IMG/VR virus record: IMGVR_UViG_3300002461_001191
Direction: 5' to 3' (one strand)
DNA: 64,000 bases
Origin: a virus
Taxonomy: Duplodnaviria > Heunggongvirae > Uroviricota > Caudoviricetes
The notes beneath the pieces are model-generated. The model was given only the letters and a program-made list of their open reading frames with translations. It was not told where the DNA came from and ran no database searches. A program made the translations under genes and the position numbers. Shown here piece after piece: positions 5,865 through 52,084 of this stretch (positions are counted from its first letter, which is position 1; each line of letters begins with the position of its first letter).

Positions 5865-5952
5865 GATTCATCCTGGGATTTTCTTGATTTATATTTTAAC
5901 ATGATTTGAATTAGAGAAGCTAGAAATATTTAAAATATTTTTCAATTAAGTA

Positions 5953-5982
5953 TTGACAACTCTACAATTGATATGCAATAAT
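5953..5982 (+). promoter_or_regulatory. candidate sigma70 promoter (TTGACA-N18-AATAAT) driving leader/tRNA array
   Basis: Consensus -35 TTGACA at 5953-5958; AT-rich -10 at 5977-5982. Confidence 0.4.
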
Positions 5983-6016
5983 ACAAGCATTGAGATTTAA
6001 TTTAAGGAATAATTCA

Positions 6017-6091
6017 ATGTCTTCACGTTCACAACAATTTGGTTTTTTTCAGTTTGGTCAGTTTGACCAAGCGGGGTGCCATTTTGTTTGA
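6017..6091 (+). CDS. leader peptide 1 (24 aa, MSSRSQQFGFFQFGQFDQAGCHFV), 6 Phe and 5 Gln codons
   Basis: AAGGA RBS 8 nt upstream; ORF ends 24 nt before terminator hairpin; leader 3' end (GGTGC, 6075-6079) is a copy of terminator 3' arm, so it can pair with the 5' arm as an antiterminator. Confidence 0.5.
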   Translation: MSSRSQQFGFFQFGQFDQAGCHFV

Positions 6092-6114
6092 TTAAGTAAG
6101 TATTTCAACAAAAA

Positions 6115-6141
6115 AGCACCTCTAAACAAGGTGCTTTTTTT
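6115..6141 (+). terminator. attenuator/intrinsic terminator copy 1 (AGCACC-tctaaacaa-GGTGCT + T7)
   Basis: 6-bp GC-rich stem, 9-nt loop, 7 T; same sequence at 6270-6297 and a variant at 14653-14679. Confidence 0.6.
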
Positions 6142-6172
6142 ATTGTTAGTTTTAATTTTATTAAGGATTTTT

Positions 6173-6247
6173 ATGATGTTAGTTTTGAATGTTTTTAGCC
6201 AGCAATTTTTTCAGTTCCAGTTTGGAGCTAGGTGTCCTATTGTGTAA
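6173..6247 (+). CDS. leader peptide 2 (24 aa, MMLVLNVFSQQFFQFQFGARCPIV), 6 Phe and 4 Gln codons
   Basis: AAGGA RBS 5 nt upstream; tandem duplicate of leader 1 module; AGGTG at 6230-6238 complementary to terminator 5' arm. Confidence 0.5.
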   Translation: MMLVLNVFSQQFFQFQFGARCPIV

Positions 6248-6269
6248 AAGTTTCGCAACATACTCAATA

Positions 6270-6297
6270 AGGCACCTCTAAACAAGGTGCTTTTTTT
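6270..6297 (+). terminator. attenuator/intrinsic terminator copy 2 (AGGCACC-tctaaacaa-GGTGCT + T7), 12 nt upstream of first tRNA
   Basis: Identical hairpin and loop to copy 1. Confidence 0.6.
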
Positions 6298-6309
6298 ATG
6301 GTTTTTTGC

Positions 6310-6382
6310 AGGGGATTAGTGTAATTGGTTAGCACATCGTCCTTTGAAGTCGAGAGTCTAGGTTCAAGTCCTGGGTCCCCCG
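6310..6382 (+). tRNA. tRNA-Gln(UUG), type a (no encoded CCA; A1.C72 and one U.U in anticodon stem)
   Basis: Acceptor AGGGGAT/GTCCCCC; U8A9; D-stem GTGT/GCAC; anticodon loop CTTTGAA; T-arm CTAGG-TTCAAGT-CCTGG. Confidence 0.55.
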
Positions 6383-6415
6383 CAAAAAATAATGAAAGGA
6401 AATTTAAAAGTTTAT

Positions 6416-6490
6416 TGGGGATAAATCGATTGGAGCAGATACTTGGCTTTGAACCAAGGTGAGTGGGTTCGATTCCCACATCCCCTGCCA
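6416..6490 (+). tRNA. tRNA-Gln(UUG), type b copy 1 (CCA encoded; U1.U72)
   Basis: Acceptor TGGGGAT/ATCCCCT; anticodon stem CTTGG/CCAAG; loop CTTTGAA; T-arm GTGGG-TTCGATT-CCCAC; 75 nt. Confidence 0.7.
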
Positions 6491-6496
6491 AAAAAT

Positions 6497-6572
6497 GGAC
6501 TTGTAGCTCAGTTGGTAGAGCAGCAGACTGAAAATCTGTGTGTCGGCAGTTCGATTCTGCCCAAGTCCACCA
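6497..6572 (+). tRNA. tRNA-Phe(GAA), type a (canonical, CCA encoded)
   Basis: GGACTTG-TA-GCTC-AGTTGGTA-GAGC; anticodon loop CTGAAAA; GGCAG-TTCGATT-CTGCC; CAAGTCC-A-CCA; close to E. coli tRNA-Phe. Confidence 0.9.
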
Positions 6573-6606
6573 GTTAGTTTTAGTTGTTTAATAGGATAGG
6601 TTTAAT

Positions 6607-6684
6607 GCCGCCTTGGTGTAAATTGGTAGAGCACAAAAGACTGAAAATCTTTGGGTCTCGGTTCGATTCCGAGGGGCGGCACCA
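6607..6684 (+). tRNA. tRNA-Phe(GAA), type b (divergent body, CCA encoded)
   Basis: Acceptor GCCGCCT/GGGCGGC; anticodon stem AAAGA/TCTTT; loop CTGAAAA; T-arm CTCGG-TTCGATT-CCGAG. Confidence 0.75.
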
Positions 6685-6718
6685 GGTTGTTTTGTTGAAA
6701 TTATATATGTGTTTTTAT

Positions 6719-6793
6719 TGGGGGTAAATCGATTGGAGCAGATACTTGGCTTTGAACCAAGGTGAGTGGGTTCGATTCCCACACCCCCTGCCA
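6719..6793 (+). tRNA. tRNA-Gln(UUG), type b copy 2 (CCA encoded; U1.U72)
   Basis: Near-identical to 6416-6490; acceptor pair 6:67 changed A-T to G-C on both strands (compensatory), which confirms the register. Confidence 0.7.
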
Positions 6794-6840
6794 ATCTTAA
6801 AATTAAGTATACAGGTAAGTATATTTAATTTTAAGATTAT
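6794..6840. repeat. 18-bp inverted repeat (ATCTTAAAATTAAGTATA / TATATTTAATTTTAAGAT) with 8-nt loop, filling the whole spacer between two tRNAs
   Basis: Reverse-complement arms with one G.U position; begins 1 nt after the CCA of the upstream tRNA and ends 1 nt before the next tRNA. Confidence 0.6.
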
Positions 6841-6916
6841 GCTGTTTTAGCTGATGTGGTCATAGCGCGTGGTTGAAGCCCATGAGAAGTTGGTTCGATT
6901 CCAACAGGCAGCACCA
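6841..6916 (+). tRNA. tRNA-Phe(GAA)-like, type c (G37, two G.U in acceptor stem; CCA encoded)
   Basis: Acceptor GCTGTTT/AGGCAGC; D-stem GCTG/TAGC; anticodon stem CGTGG/CCATG; loop TTGAAGC; T-arm GTTGG-TTCGATT-CCAAC; 76 nt. Confidence 0.5.
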
Positions 6917-6923
6917 GATTATT

Positions 6924-6978
6924 GGGTCGGTTTGTGGTAAACCTAGGAATGCGAGTTCGAGTCTCGTCCGATCCACCA
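6924..6978 (+). other. tRNA-like minihelix: acceptor stem + T-arm + CCA but only 20 nt where D and anticodon arms should be (truncated tRNA or remnant)
   Basis: GGGTCGG ... GCGAG-TTCGAGT-CTCGT-CCGATCC-A-CCA; 55 nt. Confidence 0.35.
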
Positions 6979-7000
6979 GTTGTTTTTTTAAGGGGTTAAT

Positions 7001-7168
7001 ATGAGCAAGCTAGAGAAAAAGAAAGAAAAATTAAAACAAAGAATTGCTGATCTTGAGTTTGAAATGAGGAATATACTTCAGAAGAAATCTCAAGGTGCAG
7101 CTATTAATATTCAAAACTATAACTCAAAGATTATGGATTTGAAAAAAGAGTTGAGTTCCATGAATTAA
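7001..7168 (+). CDS. small coiled-coil protein (55 aa) embedded in the tRNA array
   Basis: ATG 7001 preceded by AAGGGG; MSKLEKKKEKLKQRIADLEFEMRNILQKKSQGAAINIQNYNSKIMDLKKELSSMN; below the length cutoff of the ORF track. Confidence 0.3.
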   Translation: MSKLEKKKEKLKQRIADLEFEMRNILQKKSQGAAINIQNYNSKIMDLKKELSSMN

Positions 7169-7178
7169 TTTTTACAGT

Positions 7179-7253
7179 TGGCGCATAGTGTAATGGTCAG
7201 CACAATTGACTTTGAATCAGTTGGTTCCAGTTCGAATCTGGATGCTCCTGCCA
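7179..7253 (+). tRNA. tRNA-Gln(UUG), type a copy 2 (CCA encoded; U1.U72 and C4.U69 mismatches)
   Basis: TGGCGCA-TA-GTGT-AATGGTCA-GCAC; anticodon stem ATTGA/TCAGT; loop CTTTGAA; TCCAG-TTCGAAT-CTGGA; TGCTCCT-G-CCA. Confidence 0.55.
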
Positions 7254-10406: not shown

Positions 10407-12686
10407 ATGACAATTGCTCGTACTTGGGATGGGATTAATCTAATGAACTTTAAATTAGTTAATAAGAATAATATATTTAAAGAGGGTACTTTTGAAAATA
10501 TACTTGTGGAACAAGTAATCAAATTCTTCGAGCATGATTGTTACAATAGAGATACAGTAAAAGCTCCATTTTATGCTTCAGAGCATTATTTTTATGAAAA
10601 TATTCTTGCTTCAAGAATTCTAAAATATTTAAGTCAACATAAAATTGATATACCTATGGATATTACATTCAAGTCTCTTCTTGGACAAAAGGCTTGTTGG
10701 TATGCAAGATTGTCTGGTTGTATTGAAGCTAAAAAAATCACTGATGGAGTTTATCACGGATACAAACCTAATGTTCCAGTTTTCGGATTATATCTTGAGT
10801 CTGGTATCATTGATTTGCTCAAAGATTCTGATTTTATCAATAAATTAATTAAAACAAGTCCTACAAAAGATGGATTAAAACATTTAATTGAAGTAGCAAA
10901 GCTATCTTCTGCATTTAGACAACTATTGAGAATGCCAACAATTGAGTTTGATCCTAAAAATGAAAGTTCAATTTATCATAAAAGTAAATATAAAAATTTA
11001 AAAGTTAACAATATAAATATAAAAAATTATCAATCTTTTAATTTTCAAACATGGCCAGAAATAGAAAACATAGAGGTTGCAGCAACAACTAGAGGTATAT
11101 ATCATCATTTGGGAGATGATGTTGCTTTTATGTTAAGTGCAATGGAGTATGGTGATTTTTGTATATTGGGATCAGATGAGTTTGGTGATATTATACCTAT
11201 GTATTATTATTCTTATAATCTAATGAATACTGTTAGCTTTGATGACAATAGAATTTTTAGTTGGGAAGATTTTGATTATATTTATGGTGTACCAAGAATT
11301 AATGCTCTTTATCCATCTGCTAATAATGTTATATTTAAATATGCAAGTGAAGATAAAGATCAGTGCCTTATTAATAAAAAAGAAAATTCTGCTTTAGCTG
11401 GTGCTTTTTGGAATAATTCTGTATTTAATCAGTTATCAGGAAGAAATATAGCAACTAAAAGTTTGAAGGAATTATCTTTAGAGCTTAAACAATGTGTTGA
11501 AAAAGCAATTGAAAATAGTCAATTTGTAAAAAATAATGAAAATTTAGAAAAGTTTTTTTTAGAAAAATATTTTCATAACAAGTGCTTAGATCTCAATAAT
11601 CAGGATGAAGTAGATTTTTTAAACATTGCTAATTCTTTTATTAGAAAAAATTACTCTTTCTTTATAAAAACTGTTGCACAAAAAGTTAACTGTATGGTTA
11701 TTAATCCTGAAGAAAAAACACAGCTTGCTTTCTTTAAAAAATCAGGTGAAAGCAAAGCACCAGCGTACCTTGATTTGCTATATTTATTAAAGTTTTTTAT
11801 GACTCAATCAAAAGAAAATAAAGAGTTGGGATTGACTGTTGAGTTTTATCAAAAAGCTTTAATCAATTTTTTGTTAGGAGATAATCCTAAAGGATTTTGG
11901 GAGAGAGAATATATTCACTTATATAATTATTGGTTAAATTTAGATAAAAAATCATTTGTTGTATCTGATTTAGTTGAGATGAATAATGAGTATAGAATAT
12001 TTATTGTTAATGGTAAGATTGCTACAGGAACGCCATGCTACAGAAATACAACTCCATTTAATGCTTGGACAAAAGGAAGATTAGACCCAAGGTTATGTGA
12101 TGGACATAATGCAACAGAAATTAAATTGGATAATAGTACAAGAAATATTGCAGCAAAATATGGTCGTTTTGCTCGTAAGTTTTTGTCTTTAATGAACAAG
12201 GAATATCCAGAAATAAAAAGTTATGTTTTGGATGTTTGTATAAGTTATGATAAAGATAATAATATGGTAGTGATGCCAATAGAAGTTAATTCTATTAATA
12301 TGTCTGGAGCATATCAGGCTGATATGAGAAAAATATGTGCTGTGGTTGCTGGAAAGAAGTCAAACATATCAAGTTTAAATAATGTTTTTAATTTAGATTC
12401 GTTAATGTCTAATCCTATAGATTTTATTATCAATAAAAGTATATATTATGGTGCTGGAGATGATTCAATTAAAGGTGTTATAGAAGATGTATATGAAATA
12501 CAATCTGATATCATACAGGAAAAAATTAATCAAATAGATCAGAGAAATCCAGATAATTTAACAGATTCAGATGAGAATTATGATGATACTGAAACTAATG
12601 AGTTCCTTGATTTTATTGATAGTGTCAATAAACCAACAATTATTGATTTAGATGTAGATACTACAAATAAAAATGAAAAAATGTGA
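10407..12686 (+). CDS. large protein with C-terminal ATP-grasp-like domain
   Basis: EYRIFIVNGKIATGT ... VLDVCISYDKDNNMVVMPIEVNSINMSGAY resembles ATP-grasp strand motifs; paralogous to 29007-29918. Confidence 0.5.
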   Translation: MTIARTWDGINLMNFKLVNKNNIFKEGTFENILVEQVIKFFEHDCYNRDTVKAPFYASEHYFYENILASRILKYLSQHKIDIPMDITFKSLLGQKACWYARLSGCIEAKKITDGVYHGYKPNVPVFGLYLESGIIDLLKDSDFINKLIKTSPTKDGLKHLIEVAKLSSAFRQLLRMPTIEFDPKNESSIYHKSKYKNLKVNNINIKNYQSFNFQTWPEIENIEVAATTRGIYHHLGDDVAFMLSAMEYGDFCILGSDEFGDIIPMYYYSYNLMNTVSFDDNRIFSWEDFDYIYGVPRINALYPSANNVIFKYASEDKDQCLINKKENSALAGAFWNNSVFNQLSGRNIATKSLKELSLELKQCVEKAIENSQFVKNNENLEKFFLEKYFHNKCLDLNNQDEVDFLNIANSFIRKNYSFFIKTVAQKVNCMVINPEEKTQLAFFKKSGESKAPAYLDLLYLLKFFMTQSKENKELGLTVEFYQKALINFLLGDNPKGFWEREYIHLYNYWLNLDKKSFVVSDLVEMNNEYRIFIVNGKIATGTPCYRNTTPFNAWTKGRLDPRLCDGHNATEIKLDNSTRNIAAKYGRFARKFLSLMNKEYPEIKSYVLDVCISYDKDNNMVVMPIEVNSINMSGAYQADMRKICAVVAGKKSNISSLNNVFNLDSLMSNPIDFIINKSIYYGAGDDSIKGVIEDVYEIQSDIIQEKINQIDQRNPDNLTDSDENYDDTETNEFLDFIDSVNKPTIIDLDVDTTNKNEKM

Positions 12687-13422: not shown

Positions 13423-14481
13423 ATGAATACTATTATGACAAATACAGATAAGGTTAAACAATTTGAAAAAAATTTTTATTCAGTGGTTAAAGAAAACAAT
13501 TTAGAGTTGCTGGAGTTTTTCTTGCTAAATTCTGATTTCCCTAAATATTCTCAATCATACAAACAAAGTGTGATGGACTATCTGGTATACAATGGTCACA
13601 AGTTCCCTAATTTTGATTTACCTTTGTGGTCTTTGACAAATGACTATATGGGTGTCAATGGTAATATACATGAGAATGCAGATAGACCTTTGAGACTTGC
13701 AGCTTCATTGAATGTGCCTTATGCAAAGTTTTTGTTGACATCAAATAAACTTAAAGAGCATGCCAATATAAATGAAACCAATGATGGCTCTAGTGCTATT
13801 TTAAATGCTATTCAAAGTGAAAATTTGGATTTTGTTAAGTTCTTACTGACAAGTAAAGAGTTAAAAATTCATGCAAAGCTCAATATATCAGATAAGCCAT
13901 TTAATGATCCGTTGTGTAAAGCATGTGAGGGTAAGAATAACGATATTTTAGAGTATTTGTTGAGTGAAGAGGCGTATGTCAATCAAGATGGATTTAGTCC
14001 TGTTGAGAATTTGCAAAGATTTCAAAATGAAACTTTTAAGAAATTAATTCGTCAAGATAACAAAGATATGATTCAGAAGATTTTACAATCTGACATTTTG
14101 GACATAAAAGAAAATGGTTATGATTTTTTATGTCAAGCAATTACTATAGACGCAAGAAAAACAACTGATTATCTATCTGATTTTTTAAATATACCTGTTG
14201 ATTTAATGAACATGAGATATAAGGATAAAAGTATCTTCTTCCACATTGCTCACACCGCCCACAATTCCAGAATACCGAAACATTCTTTTTTGCATGAGAT
14301 ATTGGAAAATCCCAACTTTTCAATTTCCTATGAAGAAATAGATGATATAGATAGCCTATACCATTATGGTGAAATTCAGACTGAAAAACTAATGGCTTAC
14401 ATAGAGAGGTTTGAAAAGATTCACAATATGGACAAGGTTTTACAATCAAAAGAACAATTACATAAAAAGCTTAAATTATAA
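13423..14481 (+). CDS. ankyrin-repeat-like protein
   Basis: Repeated ~33-aa units with ..PL.LAAS.N...KFLLTS / SAILNAIQS.NLDFVKFLLTS pattern. Confidence 0.35.
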   Translation: MNTIMTNTDKVKQFEKNFYSVVKENNLELLEFFLLNSDFPKYSQSYKQSVMDYLVYNGHKFPNFDLPLWSLTNDYMGVNGNIHENADRPLRLAASLNVPYAKFLLTSNKLKEHANINETNDGSSAILNAIQSENLDFVKFLLTSKELKIHAKLNISDKPFNDPLCKACEGKNNDILEYLLSEEAYVNQDGFSPVENLQRFQNETFKKLIRQDNKDMIQKILQSDILDIKENGYDFLCQAITIDARKTTDYLSDFLNIPVDLMNMRYKDKSIFFHIAHTAHNSRIPKHSFLHEILENPNFSISYEEIDDIDSLYHYGEIQTEKLMAYIERFEKIHNMDKVLQSKEQLHKKLKL

Positions 14482-14497
14482 GATTTTTTTTATCTGC

Positions 14498-14527
14498 TTG
14501 ACTTTTAAAATAAATTCAAGTTATAAT
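14498..14527 (+). promoter_or_regulatory. candidate sigma70 promoter TTGACT-N18-TATAAT upstream of aspS leader
   Basis: Consensus hexamers at 14498-14503 and 14522-14527. Confidence 0.45.
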
Positions 14528-14550
14528 GAAATTATATTAAGCTTTTAAAA

Positions 14551-14628
14551 ATGTTTATTCAAATTTTCTTCAACGATAATAACAATAATGATGCTGCACA
14601 GAGTGCTGGCAGATTGTTGTTTGTCTAA
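14551..14628 (+). CDS. leader peptide (25 aa, MFIQIFFNDNNNNDAAQSAGRLLFV) with 5 Asn + 2 Asp codons in a row
   Basis: ORF ends 25 nt before terminator; its 3' part CAGAGTGCT (14599-14607) is an exact copy of the terminator 3' arm, so AGAGTGCT can pair with the 5' arm AGCACTCT as an antiterminator. Confidence 0.5.
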   Translation: MFIQIFFNDNNNNDAAQSAGRLLFV

Positions 14629-14652
14629 AAGAAAAGAATCAACAAACTCAAA

Positions 14653-14679
14653 AGCACTCTAAAACAGAGTGCTTTTTTT
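14653..14679 (+). terminator. attenuator/intrinsic terminator (AGCACTC-taaaaca-GAGTGCT + T7) 30 nt upstream of aspS start
   Basis: Same family as 6115-6141 and 6270-6297 (AAAAGCAC.CTAAA.CA..GTGCTTTTTTTAT). Confidence 0.6.
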
Positions 14680-14708
14680 ATTGTCAAAAATTTTTAAGGA
14701 GATATCAA

Positions 14709-15983
14709 ATGAGAACATTAGTCAAAGAGTTGAAAGAGAAAATTGGTCAAGAGGTTAAGTTGTATTTAACTTTAGATGTTATGCGTAACCAGAAACATTT
14801 GCAGTTCATTCTAGCTCATGACAAGTCTGGTGCCATTCAGTTGGTTCTCTCCAAATCAAAAGTTCAAAACAATGAGGAAGTTGGACAGTTATTGCAAGGT
14901 TCAACTTTAATTGCTATAGGGGAAGTTGTCTCTGCAACCCAAAGTAAAACATTTGGGTTGGAAATACAGGTCAGCAGTATTGAGATAATGTCAAAAGCTG
15001 AAGCTTTTCCCATTACAGAAGAATCAAGTATTGACTTGAGGTTTGACTACCGTGCTGTTGATTTGAAATTCCCCAAACAACAGTTAATGTTAAAGCTTCG
15101 TAGTGCATTTGAGCAAGGGTGTCGTGAATATCTTTTATCAAAAGAGTTTACAGAAATTCATACTGCTAAATTAATGTCTAGAGCCTCAGAGAGTGGTAGC
15201 CAGGTATTCAAAGTGGATTATTTTGATAAAAAAGCTTTTTTGAGTCAGAGTCCTCAGGAAGGAAAAGAATTACATGTATCTAGCGGATTAGAGGGTGTTT
15301 TTGAAGTTGGTAGTGTATTCAGAGCAGAAGAGTCAAGATCATCTCGCCACTTAACTGAATTTATCGGTATAGATGTGGAGTTTGCTTGGTGTTTTGAAGT
15401 AGAAGAAGTCATGAAGATAGAAGAAGAGATGTTGTGCTATGCTTTTGCAAAGTTAGAACCATTTAAAGAAGAAGTGAAATCACTTTACAATCTTGAGTTA
15501 ACTACGAAGCCTACTGTAAAATACATGACTTTAGAACAAGCCAAGGTTATATTAAAAGAAAAATCTGGTATGTCTTTAGGAAGAGATCAGGATTTGCCAG
15601 ATGAAGGTGAAAGAATGCTATATGAAATTTTAGGTTTTGATTTGATTTTTGTATCAAACTATCCGATTGCAAAAAGGCCATTCTACCATATGTGGGAAAA
15701 AGAAAAGGGAACTACAAAAAGTTTTGACTTGATTTTCAAAGGTATAGAAATCACAAGTGGTGCTATCAGAGAGCATAGGCATGATATTTTTGCACAACAA
15801 GTAGTTCAAAAGGGTGTAAGTCTTGATTCAGTAGATAACTATTTGAAGGTGTTCAAATACGGATGTCCTCCACATGGTGGATTTGGATTAGGTGTAGAAA
15901 GGGTCATTGCCAAACTACTTGGATTGAGCAGTGTCAAGGAAGCTTCTGCTATGCCAAGAGACCCTGATAGGTTAATGCCGTGA
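14709..15983 (+). CDS. aspS: aspartate--tRNA ligase, archaeal/eukaryal-type (short, no GAD insertion)
   Basis: Class IIb: N-terminal OB fold; QSPQ flipping-loop motif; motif 2 FRAEESRSSRHLTEF; motif 3 GGFGLGVERV; C-terminal PRDPDRLMP; 424 aa. Confidence 0.8.
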   Translation: MRTLVKELKEKIGQEVKLYLTLDVMRNQKHLQFILAHDKSGAIQLVLSKSKVQNNEEVGQLLQGSTLIAIGEVVSATQSKTFGLEIQVSSIEIMSKAEAFPITEESSIDLRFDYRAVDLKFPKQQLMLKLRSAFEQGCREYLLSKEFTEIHTAKLMSRASESGSQVFKVDYFDKKAFLSQSPQEGKELHVSSGLEGVFEVGSVFRAEESRSSRHLTEFIGIDVEFAWCFEVEEVMKIEEEMLCYAFAKLEPFKEEVKSLYNLELTTKPTVKYMTLEQAKVILKEKSGMSLGRDQDLPDEGERMLYEILGFDLIFVSNYPIAKRPFYHMWEKEKGTTKSFDLIFKGIEITSGAIREHRHDIFAQQVVQKGVSLDSVDNYLKVFKYGCPPHGGFGLGVERVIAKLLGLSSVKEASAMPRDPDRLMP

Positions 15984-15996
15984 AAACTAAAATTAA

Positions 15997-17973
15997 TTAA
16001 ATGAGGTAAAGAAATTTGTGAATATTTTCACTTATTTCTTTAGTTCTTGAGTTTATGTCATCAATAGTAAAAAAATCTTGTTTTTGACATATTAATTCTA
16101 TTTGTTTTAATTGGTGTTTTTGTTTTTCATAAACATATTGTTTTTTCTTGATAAAAGTATTATTTTTTGCCTCTTCATTTGAAGTATCATCAAGTAAAAT
16201 AAAGTTTCCAAGTTGATTTAATTCACTTTTATTTAATTCTTTATATTTAGGATTAATTTGTATTAATTTTTTCTGCACTAATGGAATAATATGTTCAATT
16301 TGAATATTTTCTTTAATAGTTTGTTTAAAAATTGCTTGTTTTAATTGGTTAAAATCAACTTGAGATAGTGATAATTCATATAAATATAGAATTCCTTTTC
16401 TAACTTGTAAAAAATTATACTCTTTCCATTTTTCGTATATTTTGGTTTCATCTATTGGATTAAAAAATAGTTTTGTGCTAATAAATTTGATTATATCGTT
16501 ATTGGTTTTAACCTCTTGTAATAAGTCTGGGAAAACAGATATATTCATAATATTGTTGTTTATATAGTTGTTGTTTGCTCCATTGTAAACACCCATAAAA
16601 TAAATTTTAATAATATCTTGTAGTAGTTTTATAAATTTATTTTTTTCTATTTGTTCATTATTTTTAGGGTATAGTTCTAATAAAACAGGAGTGTAAAGAT
16701 CTAATAAGTCTAAGTGATCTAATATATATAAATAGATAGATGCCTCATGAAAGGGATCAGTAAAACCTTTAATTTGTTTATATATTATTTCAAATTGCTC
16801 TAATTGTTTGTAGAAATTTAATGTTTCGTTATTACTCCAAACGGTAGGATTGAGAACTGAATTGTTAAGGAAAGAAGTAAGTTTTTCTATGCTTACTATT
16901 TTCTCGTTTTTGAAAATGCTTGTATTTGTTATTTTAAAAACAGACATAACATATCTATCAAGATTGTCTTCACCAAGATTTGTTTTCAATTGTTTAAAAA
17001 AATCATTAACTTTTTGACCATTATCTGTTCCGTCTTCTGCTAATATAAAGGTATTTTTAATTAAATCGATAGGCTTTAGTGTTTTCCCTGTATTATTTTT
17101 ATTTTGAAATATAATTGATGGATTAATTTTTGAACTAAATACTTCTATAGTAATAAGAGTATTAAAAAAACTATCTATAACGTTACTAAAATCTTTTAAA
17201 GATTCCTTTGAAATGTACAATTTATGGTTGTAATCATATACTATGTTTAATTTTTTATGAAAAAAATGAAATATACAAACTAAAGCTTCTAGTGTATGTT
17301 TAAAAGATTGTATATCTTTTTTAATATCCTTATTTTTATAATATAATATATTTAGTATTTCTGTATATGTTTGTTTCTTGTTTTTATTTTGACATAATAT
17401 ATTAAATATGTTTTCTCTGTTTTTTATGAGAGAGCAATAAAATTCATTATATTGAGTTGAGTTTATAAATTTAAGCTTTGATACTTCTTCACCGTTTTTG
17501 TTGTTAACTAAAACATTATTTAAAGAGTTTAGTTTTATGTGTTCTTGTTTAAATTTAGAGTAAATCTCTTTTTTCCTTTTATCAATTGATAATGTTAAGG
17601 TCTTCTCAAAATTTTCTTCATTTAAAGATATTGTTTTTTGAAATAGAACCTCTAAAAATAGTGCTATCAAGCTCAATGTTGTTGTTCTTTGTTGTCCATC
17701 CATTATAGAAACTAAATTTTCTTTAACTGGTTGTAAGATTAGACTGCCAATTTCTGCATTAATGTATTCATTAGAAAAGTCATTTGATAAGTTCACATTA
17801 AAAATAGTGTCTAAAAGTTTATGAACATGCTTATGTTCCCATTCATACTCTCTTTGGTAGTACTGCATAACAAATTCTGGATTTTCTAAAGAAAATGCTT
17901 CTCCTGTCATGTAGTCTTTAATTTTCCTGACTTCAGCTTGTTTAATGTTTTTTTCATCTGTTAAAGATAGCAT
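15997..17973 (-). CDS. GmrSD-family type IV restriction endonuclease (DUF262 + DUF1524)
   Basis: N-terminal DUF262 with DGQQRTTTL motif; C-terminal His-Me finger IEHIIPL ... GNFILLDDTSNEEAKN. Confidence 0.75.
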   Translation of the reverse strand: MLSLTDEKNIKQAEVRKIKDYMTGEAFSLENPEFVMQYYQREYEWEHKHVHKLLDTIFNVNLSNDFSNEYINAEIGSLILQPVKENLVSIMDGQQRTTTLSLIALFLEVLFQKTISLNEENFEKTLTLSIDKRKKEIYSKFKQEHIKLNSLNNVLVNNKNGEEVSKLKFINSTQYNEFYCSLIKNRENIFNILCQNKNKKQTYTEILNILYYKNKDIKKDIQSFKHTLEALVCIFHFFHKKLNIVYDYNHKLYISKESLKDFSNVIDSFFNTLITIEVFSSKINPSIIFQNKNNTGKTLKPIDLIKNTFILAEDGTDNGQKVNDFFKQLKTNLGEDNLDRYVMSVFKITNTSIFKNEKIVSIEKLTSFLNNSVLNPTVWSNNETLNFYKQLEQFEIIYKQIKGFTDPFHEASIYLYILDHLDLLDLYTPVLLELYPKNNEQIEKNKFIKLLQDIIKIYFMGVYNGANNNYINNNIMNISVFPDLLQEVKTNNDIIKFISTKLFFNPIDETKIYEKWKEYNFLQVRKGILYLYELSLSQVDFNQLKQAIFKQTIKENIQIEHIIPLVQKKLIQINPKYKELNKSELNQLGNFILLDDTSNEEAKNNTFIKKKQYVYEKQKHQLKQIELICQKQDFFTIDDINSRTKEISENIHKFLYLI

Positions 17974-28359: not shown

Positions 28360-29010
28360 ATGATGATAATACAGTCATTTCAACCTCAATCTGTGCTAGA
28401 TGATATCAATAAAAACGGTTTGGCATTTTCAAAACCAGATTTTTCTATTTGGGATGGTGAAATCATTAACCCAGATTTAATTTGGGGGTTTAGGCATTCA
28501 TATGAGTGGATGGTTCAACAGATGAATAGAAGTGTAGAGAATAACACATTTGCTAAATTTCCATTCTGGGGTTGGGCTTGGTCTGGAGACAACGATCAAA
28601 AATATATAGATTTATCATTACATAAAGAGTATTCGGGAGAATACTTAATAACAATGGAGTTGGATGAAAAAGATTTATTTTTTAGTGATTTTCAATTATG
28701 GCACTATGTTTTGAACTATTGGCCAATAGTGTCTTCAGAAGAAGAAAGAATTTTCTTTGAGGCATTGGAGAAAGACAAAAAAAACAATTATTATGATAAT
28801 AAACCGTTGAAAGATATTGTTTATGATTTAAAGATAAGAAACACTTGGAATAAGATTTTTTCTTTAAGGAAAAGTGGTGATTTTTTTATCAGTTCTTTAA
28901 GTGAAAAAGAGATTGAGTACTTAGAAATGAGTCCTGAAGAAAAAATAGTGACTCAATCTTGTTTTTGGAATATTGAGAAAAAAAATATATTAAAGGTTGA
29001 AAAAATATGA
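28360..29010 (+). CDS. hypothetical protein, translationally coupled to ATP-grasp gene
   Basis: 216 aa; stop overlaps next start (ATGA). Confidence 0.4.
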   Translation: MMIIQSFQPQSVLDDINKNGLAFSKPDFSIWDGEIINPDLIWGFRHSYEWMVQQMNRSVENNTFAKFPFWGWAWSGDNDQKYIDLSLHKEYSGEYLITMELDEKDLFFSDFQLWHYVLNYWPIVSSEEERIFFEALEKDKKNNYYDNKPLKDIVYDLKIRNTWNKIFSLRKSGDFFISSLSEKEIEYLEMSPEEKIVTQSCFWNIEKKNILKVEKI

Positions 29011-29918
29011 GAGTAAAGTGGTTAATTCAGTCTAATGGAGTTACTAGAAAACCTTTGGAAGAAGAGTTTTTTGCAAAAAATCTTCAAATGTTTGATTTTG
29101 CAATGATTCCATTCACACATAAAATCATTAATCTGGACACTATTTTTTTAGATTTTTTAACAAATAAAGATGTCTCCTATGTTCTAAAGGGTGGTACAAG
29201 AATATTGGATATTTTAAAAGATGACGGGTTTGTAGAAGAAAATAAAAAAATCTTATTGGAACATGCTTCTGAGGAATATGTTGATTTATTTTTTAATAGA
29301 TTTAAAGCTGGGTTGTTTTATGATTTAGACAAGTTTGATCAAGCACATTATTCCTCTATTGGATTGCCTATGCTCAATCAAAGTCCATTTGTTGGGTATT
29401 TTCACGATGTAAAAGCCATTGTTTTTGAAAAAGACATGTTTGTGAAGCCCACATCTGATGGAAAGAGTTTTGCTGGTAAGATTCTACCCAAAGGGCAAAG
29501 TTTGGAAGATTTGCTAAAAACCATCATGTATCAAGAAAAGGTTAGTAAAGAGACTATCATGTTCTCTGAGATTAAAAATGTTCTTCATGAGTTCAGGTTT
29601 TTCATTATCAATGATGAGGTTGTCACTGGTAGTCAATACATGCAAGATCATAGGGTTGTTGTAAGAAATTTGTCAGATTCAGAGTTGGATAAAAAAGCAC
29701 TTGAGGTGGCTCAAGATTATGCTTTGCTGTATAAGCCAAGTGATGTGTTTACTCTAGATATATGTCTTGAGAGTAGTGGAAGATGGAGTATTGTGGAGTA
29801 TAACTGTTTTAATTGTTCAGGTCTTTATGCTGCTGACTTGATGAAGCTGACTCAATCAATGGAGAATTTTTTAATCAAAAAAACAACAAATTTAAAAATT
29901 AAATCATCCTTTACTTAA
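29007..29918 (+). CDS. ATP-grasp-like protein (paralog of C-terminal domain of 10407-12686)
   Basis: EFRFFIINDEVVTGS ... FTLDICLESSGRWSIVEYNCFNCSGLY. Confidence 0.5.
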   Translation: MRVKWLIQSNGVTRKPLEEEFFAKNLQMFDFAMIPFTHKIINLDTIFLDFLTNKDVSYVLKGGTRILDILKDDGFVEENKKILLEHASEEYVDLFFNRFKAGLFYDLDKFDQAHYSSIGLPMLNQSPFVGYFHDVKAIVFEKDMFVKPTSDGKSFAGKILPKGQSLEDLLKTIMYQEKVSKETIMFSEIKNVLHEFRFFIINDEVVTGSQYMQDHRVVVRNLSDSELDKKALEVAQDYALLYKPSDVFTLDICLESSGRWSIVEYNCFNCSGLYAADLMKLTQSMENFLIKKTTNLKIKSSFT

Positions 29919-29959: not shown

Positions 29960-30292
29960 ATGAATACAGAAAAAATTGTTTCCTTCTTGCGTGGTATTTC
30001 TCACTTGAGTGAGATTAATGTAAAACCCAATAAAGACTTTAAACACAAGTTTGTTGATTTGACTGGTCAAATGAACTGGGTTGTTGTGGATGATAGTAAG
30101 GTTGCTATTGATTCTCATGCAAGAATTATTTTTGATTTGTCTGAAAAAGAAGACAGATTGGAATTACTCAGCGCTCTTGCATATCAGAAATATAAATCAG
30201 ACCAATATGACTTGATTGTAGCAGAAAACGAAAAGTTTGTGCTTGAACATTTTAAAGGTGATGATATCAGTGGTTATTTCTTTGACGCCTGA
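29960..30292 (+). CDS. hypothetical protein
   Basis: 110 aa ORF. Confidence 0.35.
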   Translation: MNTEKIVSFLRGISHLSEINVKPNKDFKHKFVDLTGQMNWVVVDDSKVAIDSHARIIFDLSEKEDRLELLSALAYQKYKSDQYDLIVAENEKFVLEHFKGDDISGYFFDA

Positions 30293-30831
30293 TATTTTGT
30301 TTTTTGCTCAATGATTGCTGTGATTGTTTTCTTCTTCAGTAGAAGGTCAATCAACAAAGATCCTGAAATGAATACAATATTTTGATGTTCTTTTACAATG
30401 TTTTTTGATCGCTCACCAGTTTTGCCAGTGTGGGCAAAAACTCCGTAATAGTATTTGCCATCTTTTACCTTTTGTGCCAAATCTAAAACATCTTTATTGT
30501 TGATGTAGTTCTTATATCTTTTGCATTGAATCAACACTTTGCCTTGTTTTATTTTGAATTTTCCGTCTATACCTCCGTCATTGGAGTATGATTTGTTCCT
30601 TATAATATGGACATTGGTATCTTGTATAACATTGAGGATGAGTTCTTCAAAAACAAAAGGATTTATTTTTTTTAAGTAGTTTATGCTCTTGGGATAGCCA
30701 TATTCTTGAGAACTTATTTCAACTATTTTTTTCAAAACTTCTTTGGCTTTTCTGATTCTATACAAATGAACCCATTTGCCCAAGAGTCTGAACCTGTTGA
30801 TTATAATTGACCAAATTTTTATCCAATTCAT
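30274..30831 (-). CDS. restriction-endonuclease-like protein (Mrr_cat domain only)
   Basis: SNDGGIDGKFKIKQGKVLIQCKRYKNY matches Mrr catalytic core D-x-GIDG ... QCK. Confidence 0.55.
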   Translation of the reverse strand: MNWIKIWSIIINRFRLLGKWVHLYRIRKAKEVLKKIVEISSQEYGYPKSINYLKKINPFVFEELILNVIQDTNVHIIRNKSYSNDGGIDGKFKIKQGKVLIQCKRYKNYINNKDVLDLAQKVKDGKYYYGVFAHTGKTGERSKNIVKEHQNIVFISGSLLIDLLLKKKTITAIIEQKTKYQASKK

Positions 30832-39081: not shown

Positions 39082-39104
39082 TCTGTTGACATTTTTAAAT
39101 ATTG
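39076..39104 (+). promoter_or_regulatory. candidate sigma70 promoter TTGACA-N17-TACAAT upstream of proS leader region
   Basis: Consensus hexamers. Confidence 0.4.
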
Positions 39105-39121
39105 AGAATACAATCAAGGTT

Positions 39122-39169
39122 ATGAAAAAATTATTCAATAAATCATTTCGACCTCTATTGCCATCTTAA
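39122..39169 (+). CDS. possible leader peptide (15 aa, MKKLFNKSFRPLLPS) upstream of proS
   Basis: Short ORF; its last codons lie in hairpin CCATC-ttaaaa-GGTGG, a near-copy of the downstream terminator hairpin; only 2 Pro codons and a poorly spaced RBS. Confidence 0.25.
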   Translation: MKKLFNKSFRPLLPS

Positions 39170-39211
39170 AAGGTGGTGAGTATTTTCTTTTTCTAAAAAT
39201 TATTAAGAAAA

Positions 39212-39240
39212 TTTAAGCCATCTTTCAAAGGTGGCTTTTT
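39212..39240 (+). terminator. intrinsic terminator/attenuator 44 nt upstream of proS (AGCCATC-tttcaaa-GGTGGCT + T6)
   Basis: Hairpin followed by TTTTTTATTTT. Confidence 0.5.
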
Positions 39241-39283
39241 TATTTTCGCTTCAATAATCAATTTTTAATTTAAAGGAAATATC

Positions 39284-40402
39284 ATGAAATGGTCTAATTT
39301 ATTTTTTTATAACAATCACTTCGAGAAAAACAATCAAACGTTTGATTTGGTTCAACTCATGGAAAAATCTTGTATGTTTTCTCAAGAGTCAGCAGGAATT
39401 TATTCATCTATGTCTTTAGGTGTTATTTTAGAGGAAAAACTTCAAAAAATCATTGACAAACATATGGGGAAAGCCGGATTTTCAAAAGTCAGGTTAAGTA
39501 TATTGCAAGATGGTGATCTTTGGGAGAAAACAGGTAGAATGGATTTGTATGGAGAAGAACTTTTTAAGGTTAGAAACAGAAAAAATAAGGTTTTTTGCTT
39601 AAGTGCAACTGCTGAAGAGTCTGTTACAAACTTATACATGAAGTTCTATCACAGACAAAAAGCAAATTGTAATATATATCAAATCAATACAAAGTTCAGA
39701 GATGAAATGAGAGCCAGAAGCGGTTTAATCAGAGCAAAAGAATTCATCATGAAAGACGCCTATTCTTTTGGTTCTGAAGAAAGTATTAATAATGTTTATC
39801 AACTCATGATGGACACATATAAGAATATTTTAGATGAGTTAGGTTTAATATATTATATAAAGCAAGCGGATACTGGAGAAATAGGTGGGTCAATCTCACA
39901 TGAATTTTGTGTCAGCAGTGACTTGTGTGAAAACAATGAGTTGGAAGTTGCACATATATTCAATTTAGGAACCAAGTACAGTGAAAAGTTTGGTCTGTTA
40001 GATGATTCTGGAAAAAATGTTCATATGGCTTGTTTCGGTATAGGTGTATCAAGATTACTGATGGCTCTTTTGTCAAGCAAGAGGGACAACTTAGGATTCT
40101 GGGGGGATAGTGTATTTAATACATTTGATTATGTAATAACTGCCGTTGATTATGAGAAAAACAATGAAGTAAAAACAAGATCAGATAACTTATACAATCA
40201 TTTATCCTCAAGAGGTTACAGTGTCTTATTGGATGATAGAAGTTGTAATGCTGGGAAAAAGCTTCATGACTCTGAGTTGATATGTATTCAAAATAGGATA
40301 GTTGTGAGCACAAGTGCACTAAAACAATCCAAATATGAATTGTTAAGAAGAAAGAGCATGGAGAAAGAGTTTTTAACATATGACAATCTTCTTGAGTTGT
40401 AA
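39284..40402 (+). CDS. proS: proline--tRNA ligase, minimal form (no editing insertion, 372 aa)
   Basis: Class IIa: motif 2 FRDEMRARSGLIRAKEFIMKDAYSF; motif 3 GCFGIGVSRLLMALL; C-terminal anticodon-binding domain. Confidence 0.6.
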   Translation: MKWSNLFFYNNHFEKNNQTFDLVQLMEKSCMFSQESAGIYSSMSLGVILEEKLQKIIDKHMGKAGFSKVRLSILQDGDLWEKTGRMDLYGEELFKVRNRKNKVFCLSATAEESVTNLYMKFYHRQKANCNIYQINTKFRDEMRARSGLIRAKEFIMKDAYSFGSEESINNVYQLMMDTYKNILDELGLIYYIKQADTGEIGGSISHEFCVSSDLCENNELEVAHIFNLGTKYSEKFGLLDDSGKNVHMACFGIGVSRLLMALLSSKRDNLGFWGDSVFNTFDYVITAVDYEKNNEVKTRSDNLYNHLSSRGYSVLLDDRSCNAGKKLHDSELICIQNRIVVSTSALKQSKYELLRRKSMEKEFLTYDNLLEL

Positions 40403-51127: not shown

Positions 51128-52084
51128 ATGAGTAAGTCCTCTCTAATACTTGGAGATAGTCTTGACCATTATCATACTGCACCTGCACCTGTTGCCATCA
51201 TTTCTGATGGCCCATATGGTGTAGATGGTTTTGAAGGTGATGAAAAAAGCTATAAAAAATTGGCTGAATTTTATTTGCCACATATACTCAACTGGTCGAA
51301 ATATTCTACTGCACAAACTACACTATGGTTTTGGTGTACTGAGATTGGTTGGGCCAGTGTAAACTCTGTATTGCTTGACAATGGTTGGATTTATAAATCA
51401 TGTAATATTTGGGACAAAGGAATTAGGCATATATCTGGTAACTGCAACGGCAAGACTATGAGAAAGTTTCCTGTTGTCACTGAGGTTTGTGCTCAATATG
51501 TTAGAAAAGAAGAGTTCTTTGATGTGGCTGATGAGAGTTTTAGCATACAAAAATGGATGAGAAGTGAATGGGATAGAACAGGCCTTGGTTTGCAAGCTGC
51601 CAATACGGCTTGTGGACTGAAAAGTGCAGCTTCTAGGAAGTATCTAACCAAGGATCATCTTTGGTACTTCCCACCTGAAGAAGAATTTATGAAGTTGGTA
51701 AGTTTTGCCAACGAGTTTGGTGCCTCAGAAGGAAAACCTTATTTTGCAATCAAAGGTGAAAAACCCATTACAAAAAATGATTGGAAAAGGCTTCGTCATA
51801 AATTCAATTTTGAATACAATGTTACCAATGTCTGGAGTGTGCCTACTGTCACAAAATCTCAAAGATATAAGGGAGAAGATTTTGTCTATCATCCAAATCA
51901 AAAACCTATTGAGTTGATGGATAGAATAATCAATGCAAGCACAGATGAGGGTGATATGATTTGGGAGCCTTTTGCCGGGTCTGCTTCTGCCAGTGTTTCT
52001 GCAAAAAAACTACAAAGAGAGTTCTGGGCGGTTGAAAAAAACAAAAAATACTATAATTTAGCCCTCAAAAGATTAGGTTTGTGA
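51128..52084 (+). CDS. DNA methyltransferase, beta-class (N6-adenine or N4-cytosine)
   Basis: Motif IV (DPPY-like) SDGPYG near N-terminus; motif I EPFAGSAS near C-terminus in permuted order. Confidence 0.6.
   Translation: MSKSSLILGDSLDHYHTAPAPVAIISDGPYGVDGFEGDEKSYKKLAEFYLPHILNWSKYSTAQTTLWFWCTEIGWASVNSVLLDNGWIYKSCNIWDKGIRHISGNCNGKTMRKFPVVTEVCAQYVRKEEFFDVADESFSIQKWMRSEWDRTGLGLQAANTACGLKSAASRKYLTKDHLWYFPPEEEFMKLVSFANEFGASEGKPYFAIKGEKPITKNDWKRLRHKFNFEYNVTNVWSVPTVTKSQRYKGEDFVYHPNQKPIELMDRIINASTDEGDMIWEPFAGSASASVSAKKLQREFWAVEKNKKYYNLALKRLGL

Follow-up and report, generated by a model that had tools for sequence, protein, structure and literature searches.

A predicted leader-peptide attenuator with Asn and Asp codons upstream of an archaeal-type aspartyl-tRNA synthetase gene in a viral sequence record

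Introduction

What does a short open reading frame (ORF) crowded with Asn and Asp codons do in front of a gene for an aspartyl-transfer RNA (tRNA) synthetase? This question is raised by the IMG/VR virus record IMGVR_UViG_3300002461_001191 (Caudoviricetes), a 64,000-nucleotide stretch of which, here called the window, carries on its plus strand aspS2 (14709-15983), encoding an archaeal-type aspartyl-tRNA synthetase of 424 aa (AspRS2), behind a leader of ~145 nt that contains such an ORF and, 3' of it, an intrinsic terminator. An earlier note, made from the sequence of this region, had proposed that the gene is controlled by leader-peptide attenuation via the Asn/Asp codons. The proposal has gained support from 23 related loci and from compensatory changes in two of the RNA helices concerned, and we consider it probable that the leader is a classical ribosome-mediated transcription attenuator of aspS2, which is Asn-specific and, in the clade of the window, responds to Asp as well. 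It should be noted that sequence and comparison show how the leader is built, that it is conserved, where the codon run is placed and which pairs have changed in a compensatory way, and that the effect of a stalled ribosome was modelled; that the leader is translated, that ribosomes stall upon starvation, that transcription reads through and which tRNAs the enzyme charges are predictions.

Leader-peptide attenuation is textbook knowledge for Trp, His, Leu, Thr, Ile/Val and Phe and, among the genes for aminoacyl-tRNA synthetases (aaRS), essentially for pheST. As known from Escherichia coli, the pheST leader (pheM) of enterobacteria places an ORF with cognate codons, an intrinsic terminator and mutually exclusive helices, designated 1:2, 2:3 and 3:4, before the aaRS gene. 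The aspS2 leader has the same elements, helix 1:2 being a predicted one.

Anatomy of the aspS2 leader

All elements of the leader lie on the plus strand. They are preceded by a sigma-70-type promoter with TTGACT at 14498-14503, an 18-nt spacer and TATAAT at 14522-14527, which matches 11 of the 12 consensus positions and is joint best in the 15 kb that were scanned, a region in which promoter-like sites as a class are not enriched (82 observed versus 85 expected). The transcript would start at about position 14534, ~7 nt 3' of TATAAT. At the equivalent site the low-GC relatives described below have, by eye, TTGAC(A/T) and a TATAAT-like hexamer separated by ~17-18 nt. The leader ORF (14551-14628) has 25 codons and reads MFIQIFFNDNNNNDAAQSAGRLLFV up to its stop codon; codons 8-14 (14572-14592), AAC GAT AAT AAC AAT AAT GAT (N D N N N N D), form what we regard as the regulatory run. 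It is the only run of at least six Asn/Asp codons in the six frames of the 64-kb window, and none was found in 30 shuffles.

The ORF is followed by the intrinsic terminator (helix 3:4; 14650-14679, -12.6 kcal/mol), whose stem spans 14650-14676 by scan and 14651-14675 in the ViennaRNA fold, with a loop AAAAC and a U-run of seven U at 14673-14679. The sequence CAGAGTGCT occurs at 14599-14607 and again at 14665-14673, where it consists of the last loop base and the terminator 3' arm. The Shine-Dalgarno (SD) sequence of aspS2, AAGGAG at 14696-14701, has an anti-SD pairing energy of -9.2 kcal/mol, the strongest among 24 window genes. As a whole, the leader folds better than 200 out of 200 dinucleotide shuffles (z = -4.1). 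Thus, the promoter, the ORF with its seven consecutive Asn/Asp codons and the duplicated terminator arm are all present as the earlier note had described them, as is the terminator, and in combination they go beyond what chance would give.

Rfam does not provide a name for this leader. No family was matched at gathering score in the window leader or in 16 related loci; for the T-box, no match was obtained even at E <= 10 in 14450-14760, and none at gathering score in the same 16 loci. On these negatives a T-box, a riboswitch or a known small RNA was rejected; the earlier note had named a T-box or other riboswitch as an outcome that would speak against it. At ~145 nt the leader is also too short for a T-box. 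The best sub-threshold match of the window leader was Phe_leader (RF01859), with 35 bits against a gathering score of 55. This alignment runs end to end and includes the ORF start, the outer stem and the terminator; the centre is unaligned, and the codons are Asn/Asp and not Phe. The aspS2 leader therefore shares the Phe_leader architecture without being a member of RF01859. Rfam 15 contains no Asn- or Asp-specific leader family.

Conservation of the leader in related loci

Upstream DNA of related aspS2 genes was collected from public assemblies, which gave 23 loci with an AspRS2 identity of 63-91% and 23 distinct leaders, several of which are apart by one or two bases alone. A single-protein scan of genome contigs retrieved only distant relatives, with 26-42% identity. 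The comparison of aspS upstream regions, which the earlier note had suggested, turned out in its favour: in all 23 loci a reading frame of 23-26 codons opens with ATG and holds an Asn-rich run at roughly codons 6-15, and the order is throughout leader ORF, terminator, SD and aspS2, with the leader stop codon 35-45 nt 5' of the U-run. The terminator hairpins of the relatives are G+C-rich (-11.5 to -20.2 kcal/mol). The loci span ~32% to 64% GC, and the run is retained in frame while the adjacent codons diverge. Examples of leaders in the low-GC clade, which includes the window, are MIIQFLMNDNNNNDAAQSAGRLLLL, MFIFKSFDDNNNNNAAQSAGRLLSE, MYFTRFFNNNNNDAALSAGRLLFM, MFTQFLINNVDNNNDAHFMCWQVMC, MKIKLKINNNDNNMTSKSVRLFIV, MTTYFITDNNDNNMASMSVRLSFV and MTIRFIADNNDNFTQLSVGLSVA, and in the GC-rich, Pandoraea-type clade MCRFSRLSLNNNLSPLGDRRLFVC and MHHFSNRNLNNMSPLADRRLLIC. 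The latter clade also comprises the cultured Pandoraea communis (GCA_902459745.1), in which the leader MYCFSRFSLNNNLSPLGDRRLFVC stands before an aspS2 gene located between urease and oligopeptide-transporter genes; on its contig CABPSJ010000001.1 the leader is ~160 nt 5' of the gene for WP_150689639.1. Other complete contigs with the element are Ga0495683_0000001 (2.23 Mb), Ga0247725_1000001 (1.54 Mb) and Ga0308158_10000001 (1.86 Mb).

The forms of the run include NDNNNND, DDNNNNN, NNNNND, NNVDNNND, NDNNN, DNNNNN, DDNNN, NNNDNN, DNNDNN, NDNNDN, DNNDN, NNN and NLNN. Asn codons are present in every leader (23/23), with a minimum of three in a row or, in locus L054, the pattern N.NN. In the low-GC clade, every leader has in addition one or two Asp codons in or adjoining the run; their positions move between lineages, and the non-Asn residues of the run are almost solely Asp. 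The runs of the GC-rich clade are NNN, or N.NN in L054, and some of these leaders have an Asp codon nearby. Judged from these sequences, Asn is the universal signal, and Asp codons are maintained in the low-GC clade only. The mixed Asn and Asp signal put forward in the earlier note is therefore borne out for Asn, and for Asp it does not hold as a general rule.

The N-terminal part of the peptide is not conserved. Its C-terminal part seems to be, but locus L034 reads GUGCUGGCAGGUU in another frame than the other leaders, which indicates that this apparent peptide conservation is conservation of the RNA. The flanking genes differ between loci, and the upstream gene is divergently oriented in L033, L035 and L036. 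The terminator must therefore be part of the aspS2 unit, and the possibility that it is a property of the upstream gene could be discarded. A chance AAT low-complexity repeat could likewise be discarded, since every locus, even at 64% GC, keeps the run in frame.

With regard to codon choice, the Asn codons in the leaders of the GC-rich clade (L081, 5845-5919; L045-L048; L054; L063; L071) are AAT in 19 out of 19 cases, and the Pandoraea genes near aspS2 use AAC 30 times versus AAT 12 times, AAT being the minor codon. This AAT-only choice may reflect sensitisation by a rare codon, or a constraint imposed by the pairing with AUUAUU. The low-GC leaders contain 51 AAT versus 14 AAC, an AAT share of 76% compared with a genome usage of 78%. 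An SD of -3.4 kcal/mol or stronger (AGGA-type) precedes the leader ORF in 11 of the 18 leaders that were scored; for two of the 18, L081 and L082, the scoring was off by one base.

One locus has an additional feature. In L082, a second small ORF (5889-6005, MKNFNMNQTNRDVNGANNEFSISISTIKQFYKHRSILS and a stop codon) with 7 Asn among 38 residues and the SD AAAGGA lies between the terminator and aspS2; its TGA overlaps the aspS2 ATG, which suggests translational coupling, and no such ORF was seen in the other loci.

Competing RNA helices

The terminator helix is present in all relatives. In an alignment of 22 sequences, 97% of the cells pair and 6 of the 11 pairs show compensatory change, which was equalled by none of 500 shuffles. 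RNAalifold, applied to a plain MAFFT alignment of 21 leaders, found the same helix and no other. Since region 2 of the clades is shifted by 1-3 nt in that alignment, the other helices were analysed by alignment-free duplex tests and by alignment to a covariance model.

The antiterminator would be formed by region 2 (CAGAGUGCUGGCAGAUUGUUGU, 14599-14620), which holds the copy of the terminator 3' arm, and region 3 (UCAACAAACUCAAAAGCACUCU, 14639-14660), which consists of a spacer plus the terminator 5' arm and can pair with either region 2 or the 3' arm. The duplex of the window amounts to -18.8 kcal/mol (z = -4.9 versus shuffled region 2). An equivalent duplex is found in every relative (-11.5 to -30.8 kcal/mol); it starts -2 to +12 nt from the end of the run, its partner is the terminator 5' arm together with ~12 nt 5' of the arm, and in most loci it is stronger than with shuffled partners. 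When strands were swapped between loci without the use of any alignment, own pairs were better than swapped ones, which no permutation out of 20000 matched for the whole duplex, and the same was observed for the helices outside the terminator (p = 2e-4); the complementarity is therefore maintained. A covariance model of the antiterminator structure found exactly one match per locus in 22 of the 23 loci. In the model-guided alignment of 22 sequences, 85.5% of the cells pair, compared with 28-42% in the slid controls, and compensatory change is seen in 9 of 13 pairs, a result not reached by any of 500 shuffles; this alignment is fitted to the structure, and the alignment-free tests agree with it. 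The ability of the leader copy to sequester the terminator 5' arm, recognised in the earlier note, is thus part of a longer antiterminator with compensatory changes.

The anti-antiterminator (helix 1:2) appears in the minimum-energy folds as a long imperfect hairpin at 14552-14644 with its apex at 14592-14611. In it, Asn codons (ACAAUAAU, 14582-14589) pair with AUUGUUGU (14613-14620), and the apex sequesters AGAGUGCU. Across 8 sequences, 82.7% of the cells pair, versus 34-52% with the partner slid, and own strands outpair swapped ones (0/50000 permutations match).

Proposed mechanism and the effect of a stalled ribosome

With these helices, the leader could work as follows. The nascent RNA would carry the 25-codon ORF, and the behaviour of the ribosome on it would decide the outcome. 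As long as no ribosome translates the ORF, or one does so without delay, region 1 (the Asn/Asp codons plus GAUGCUGCAC) would pair with region 2 (GUGCUGGCAGAUUGUUGU), permitting the terminator at 14650-14679 to form and ending transcription before aspS2. When Asn-tRNA(Asn) or Asp-tRNA(Asp) runs short, a ribosome would stall in codons 8-14 and cover region 1; region 2 would then be free to pair with 14639-14660 as this segment emerges, before the 3' arm is made, and RNA polymerase would read into aspS2. More AspRS2 would in turn provide more Asp-tRNA(Asn) for amidation by GatCAB and more Asp-tRNA(Asp), closing the feedback loop. The link between signal and product would be direct if AspRS2 charges tRNA(Asn) with Asp for this amidation.

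The effect of the ribosome was modelled by representing it as an unpaired block from 12 nt 5' of the P site to 7-13 nt 3' of the first A-site base, in folds of the transcript up to the terminator loop; the outcome was the same for mask extents A+7 to A+13. Without a ribosome, the pairing probability of region 2 with the terminator 5' arm is 0.00 in the window leader. With the A site in the Asn/Asp run it is ~0.6-1.0, mostly 0.8-1.0, and it is likewise high for stalls at most of the codons 5' of the run. At one or two codons beyond the run it drops to 0, and it stays there over the next ten codons or so, since region 2 is itself covered by the ribosome in these positions. According to this model, the run ends at the last position at which a stall could still give read-through. 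Most other low-GC relatives that were scanned show the same pattern; in three of them the arm is sequestered without a ribosome (probability 0.86-0.97).

The AspRS2 enzyme and its likely substrates

The earlier note had identified the aspS2 product as an archaeal-type AspRS, and this assignment is correct. The protein scores 401.6 bits on NCBIfam NF003483 (aspartate--tRNA(Asn) ligase; cutoff 353) and far under the cutoffs of the AsnRS and bacterial AspRS models. Enzymes of this type have a class IIb core with the Asp-specific QSPQ motif, an OB anticodon-binding domain at the N-terminus, no GAD insertion of the bacterial kind and ~420-440 aa; the window protein fits the type, with 424 aa and the motif present as 'AFLSQSPQ'. 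Its best solved structure is AspRS2 of Thermus thermophilus (1N9W, 3KFU), the non-discriminating enzyme of the transamidosome; the alignment is full length (E = 5e-83) with a similar N-terminus. The two enzymes are ~40% identical by eye, and the residues of the window enzyme aligned with the Thermus 'APGG' loop and with the His of 'FLHWRRD' differ. The aspS2 gene is monocistronic, because the next gene, GmrSD-like and on the minus strand, converges on it. An identical AspRS2 protein and locus were found on 18 contigs. The source of the DNA is an uncultured bacterium with ~32% GC, and a metagenome of activated carbon yielded an assembly of the same locus.

AspRS2 of T. thermophilus and Deinococcus radiodurans is non-discriminating and makes Asn on the tRNA together with GatCAB (PMC4206432). 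Membership of the same family, together with the leader, suggests that the window enzyme may be non-discriminating too. The Asn codons of the leader and the co-occurrence of GatB argue for the use of tRNA(Asn) by AspRS2: in L082, GatB (scoring above the NCBIfam cutoffs) and a partial GatA are encoded 3-6 kb 5' of the aspS2 unit, and GatB homologues are present on contigs of 1,898,720, 1,917,244 and 1,843,594 bp, which are presumably the three AspRS2-bearing contigs of equal size in bp. The GatB of L082 (1402-2937) is itself divergent: it has 511 aa, its next-best database relative is 53% identical, and no GatB C-terminal Pfam domain is recorded for it. In Pandoraea, AspRS2 is probably an extra AspRS, and there the logic may be to provide additional Asp-tRNA(Asn) for amidation, rather than to be the sole supply of both aminoacyl-tRNAs.

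According to the literature, extra AspRS genes are rare in bacteria, and it is only for Thermus, Deinococcus and Clostridium that their role is clear (PMC4206432). For a second, archaeal-type AspRS in proteobacteria, the leader would contribute independent regulatory evidence: expression of the enzyme appears to be wired to tRNA(Asn) charging, which suggests that it takes part in making Asn-tRNA(Asn) via GatCAB. Since the leader is present in the cultured P. communis, the prediction is testable with standard genetics.

Contrary evidence and alternative explanations

Several observations weigh against attenuation by a leader peptide, or against parts of it. In equilibrium folds of the full transcript the terminator still wins when a ribosome is stalled, so that, as in classical attenuators, read-through can only come about kinetically. 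Once the modelled ribosome has reached the last sense codon or the stop codon, the core of region 2 is left uncovered and the pairing probability rises again; termination after normal translation therefore depends on fast ribosome release and refolding. In the GC-rich clade, the model gives probabilities of 0.3-0.7 throughout and does not discriminate between ribosome positions, because the antiterminator is very stable there (-21 to -31 kcal/mol). Column covariation of the 1:2 helix is not above that of shuffles in the 8-sequence subclade, which varies little, and for the GC-rich clade this helix is weak in the equilibrium model; it is the least secure of the three helices. The leader ORF of the window has no SD (anti-SD pairing -0.6 kcal/mol). 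As to the enzyme, the model for non-discriminating AspRS, TIGR00458 (aspS_nondisc), scores 329.8 with a cutoff of 368.4. Furthermore, we assume a His and a Pro to be the signature residues of non-discriminating AspRS, with candidates taken from Thermus AspRS2, and the residues of the window enzyme aligned with them are Asp and Thr/Phe.

How well, then, do other explanations account for the leader? One is that it is an RNA switch in which a protein such as AspRS2, or uncharged tRNA, binds the leader RNA and the ORF is incidental; the binding of ThrRS to thrS mRNA is a model for AspRS2 acting on its own leader, and with tRNA as the ligand the switch would be akin to a T-box. The strong structure of the leader (z = -4.1), the conservation of region 2 as RNA rather than peptide, and the missing SD of the window ORF would all suit such a switch, and aaRS genes are often autoregulated or controlled by a T-box (PMC2965389; PMC4574755). 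It would leave unexplained, however, why the ATG, the frame of 23-26 codons and the in-frame Asn run persist in 23/23 loci despite 63-91% protein identity and ~32-64% GC, and why the run ends exactly at the boundary given by the masking model, which has no explanation without translation. Moreover, no loop resembling a GUU or GUC anticodon was seen, there is neither a T-box nor another such Rfam match at E <= 10, and the leader has already been noted to be too short for a T-box. We consider such a switch improbable. Even further from likely is that the peptide of the ORF is functional in its own right and the terminator no more than a boundary between two genes, to which we attach the least weight of all. 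Its C-terminal part does look conserved (SAGRLLFV, SVRLSFV, GDRRLFVC), but, as the other frame in L034 shows, this conservation is at the RNA level, and the N-terminal part is not conserved; nor would one then expect a terminator between the promoter and the sole downstream gene, overlapped by a covarying antiterminator.

Two further explanations we regard as slightly less probable still than an ORF-independent switch. The leader might sense slow decoding of AAU/GAU, that is, the queuosine (Q) state of, or damage to, tRNA(Asn) and tRNA(Asp), with AspRS2 as a stress back-up. These two tRNAs are among the four that are Q-modified, and they have the G/Q34 wobble base in common. Consistent with this, the run codons mostly end in U, in the low-GC leaders as well as in all 19 Asn codons of the GC-rich ones, whose genomes prefer AAC, and the sister leaders before extra tRNA genes in the window (see below) suggest a theme of decoding rescue. 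However, the AAT share of the low-GC leaders equals genome usage, and the need for AAUAAU in the 1:2 pairing with AUUAUU/AUUGUU accounts for the choice of codons. Codons for His and Tyr, which are Q-decoded as well, show no enrichment, and the simplest link is that between the substrate and the product of the regulated enzyme. Alternatively, the window copy might be a decayed or constitutively leaky relic of a real attenuator family that, having lost its SD, has ceased to be translated; it would then stop most transcripts (super-attenuation) or act as a fixed brake. The weak anti-SD pairing of its ORF would fit this, given -3.4 kcal/mol (AAAGG) in the closest relative, L057, and up to -5.8 kcal/mol in other leaders, as would the modelled failure of the terminator 5' arm ever to pair with region 2 without a ribosome. 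Yet the ORF, the seven-codon run, the stop codon and the three helices of the window are intact, an identical protein and locus occur on 18 contigs, one third of the bona fide window genes (8/24) pair equally poorly with the anti-SD, and the 5' untranslated region of the leader is A/U-rich and unstructured in the minimum-energy fold. An attenuator that reads Asn codons by means of the ribosome remains by far our preferred explanation.

Comparison with known regulatory systems

An Asn-specific (Asn plus Asp) leader would be a new amino-acid specificity for leader-peptide attenuation. Full-text searches, in which subscription journals are mostly outside coverage, returned no Asn/Asp leader peptide and no attenuation of an AspRS2 gene. 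Besides the architecture shared with pheST, the aspS2 leader has that of trpL, hisL, leuL, thrL, ilvL and pheL, along with the mechanism inferred for it. Mixed-codon leaders are known as well, namely thrL (Thr, Ile) and ilvL (Ile, Val, Leu). Unlike in the biosynthesis leaders, the regulated product is here a tRNA-charging enzyme; if this takes part in tRNA-dependent Asn synthesis, it would be the first step of the Asn route. The pheST leader, in turn, contains Phe codons and belongs to a housekeeping PheRS operon, whereas the aspS2 leader contains Asn (and Asp) codons and belongs to a rare, probably accessory AspRS, and there is no sequence relationship between the two. We know of no report of leader-peptide control for the AspRS2 genes of Thermus or Deinococcus.

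The earlier note regarded leader-peptide attenuation of an aaRS gene as established for pheST alone. This has to be qualified, as in bacilli a His leader peptide has been predicted before hisS paralogues and before hisZ (Naville & Gautheret 2010, PMC2965389). That leader is, like the one described here, a comparative-genomics prediction before a paralogous, non-housekeeping gene of an aaRS family; it differs in its His codons, in its occurrence in Firmicutes, and in that hisZ is a biosynthesis regulator and not a tRNA-charging enzyme.

A further parallel is of another kind. Clostridium acetobutylicum is said to have an Asn-responsive 'NT-box', reported by Saad et al. in 2012 and 2013, before an operon that reportedly contains a second AspRS and the amidation pathway; its second signal is said to be Glu, where that of the aspS2 leader is Asp. 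By its title, the work on this dual-specificity T-box concerns the control of tRNA-dependent amidation for Asn and of Asn-tRNA(Asn) synthesis (cited in PMC4206432 and PMC4574755). By this account, the NT-box and the aspS2 leader both tie a second AspRS and amidation to tRNA charging by reading two tRNA species. They differ in the device: the T-box RNA binds uncharged tRNA in a Firmicute, whereas before aspS2 a ribosome would read codons in a proteobacterium. Two lineages would thus have the same regulatory logic, implemented by a T-box in C. acetobutylicum and by a leader peptide here.

Sister cassettes upstream of a tRNA array

The window contains two further elements of similar design. Behind a promoter at 5953-5982, sister cassette 1 (6017-6146) has an ORF at 6017-6091 (MSSRSQQFGFFQFGQFDQAGCHFV and a stop codon) and a terminator at 6110-6140, and sister cassette 2 (6173-6298) an ORF at 6173-6247 (MMLVLNVFSQQFFQFQFGARCPIV and a stop codon) and a terminator at 6269-6293. 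They lie directly 5' of a tRNA array (6310-7253) with four tRNA-Gln(UUG) and three tRNA-Phe(GAA), and their ORFs, which have good SDs, are rich in the codons for exactly the two species of the array, Gln and Phe. Both cassettes align with the aspS2 leader, having a similar length, similar RNA around the 3' end of the ORF and a near-exact terminator; the kinship between the aspS2 terminator and those before the tRNA array, claimed in the earlier note, is therefore evident from their sequences. The aspS2 antiterminator model matches the cassettes weakly (E = 0.009 and 0.08 in 3 kb). In the ribosome-masking model, sequestering of the terminator arm falls directly 3' of the Gln/Phe run, a behaviour shared with the aspS2 leader; unlike in the latter, the arm is largely sequestered without a ribosome (probability 0.71 and 0.86).

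The cassettes look like leader-peptide attenuation of tRNA genes, of which, to our knowledge, no case has been described. Their likeness to the aspS2 leader supports the reading of the latter as an attenuator. It is also conceivable, though here we stop somewhat short of calling it probable, that the aspS2 leader is one copy of a modular, re-targetable attenuator cassette that runs parts of the translation apparatus on demand. If true, stalling on given codons would switch on tRNA genes of that kind and, in the case of aspS2, the enzyme charging tRNA(Asn) and tRNA(Asp), and the cassettes suggest that such attenuators are re-specified by swapping the codon run alone.

The tRNA copies of the array are strongly divergent (mean column identity 65%) and not recent duplicates. 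Within the array, the end of the segment 6917-6982 resembles a tRNA 3' half (GGTTCGAGTCTCGTCCGATCCACCA) by eye and was not called by ARAGORN, and a 55-codon ORF is located at 7002-7169. Two relatives also have tRNA genes near the aspS2 unit, L033 four long ones (87-92 nt) on the opposite strand (1409-1960) and L037 two (67-222), and the link between aspS2 and a tRNA array may therefore not be unique to the window.

Other genes of the window

A short ProRS-like gene is present at 39284-40402. Its product has 372 aa, of which proS models match residues 1-217 and the anticodon-binding domain, and it apparently has no editing insert. The gene is preceded, in the region 39087-40402, by a promoter, a 15-codon ORF with two Pro codons (39122-39169, MKKLFNKSFRPLLPS and a stop codon) and a terminator stem at 39217-39235 followed by a T-run; terminator sequence is duplicated at 39162-39177, and no antiterminator duplex between the ORF and the terminator was found. 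This leader may be another attenuator, for which the case is weak.

Genes of variable or defence type are located at 10407-12686, 15997-17973, 29007-29918, 30274-30831 and 51128-52084. They encode two R2K-clade ATP-grasp proteins, a GmrSD-type restriction enzyme, an Mrr-like nuclease and a DNA methylase, and many adjoining ORFs have no family match. Ankyrin proteins are encoded near aspS2 in the window, and IcmW in the locus of one relative. Further along the window are the housekeeping genes mnmG, nadE, clpX and an rseP-like gene; the MnmG protein is 62-64% identical to named Burkholderiales proteins.

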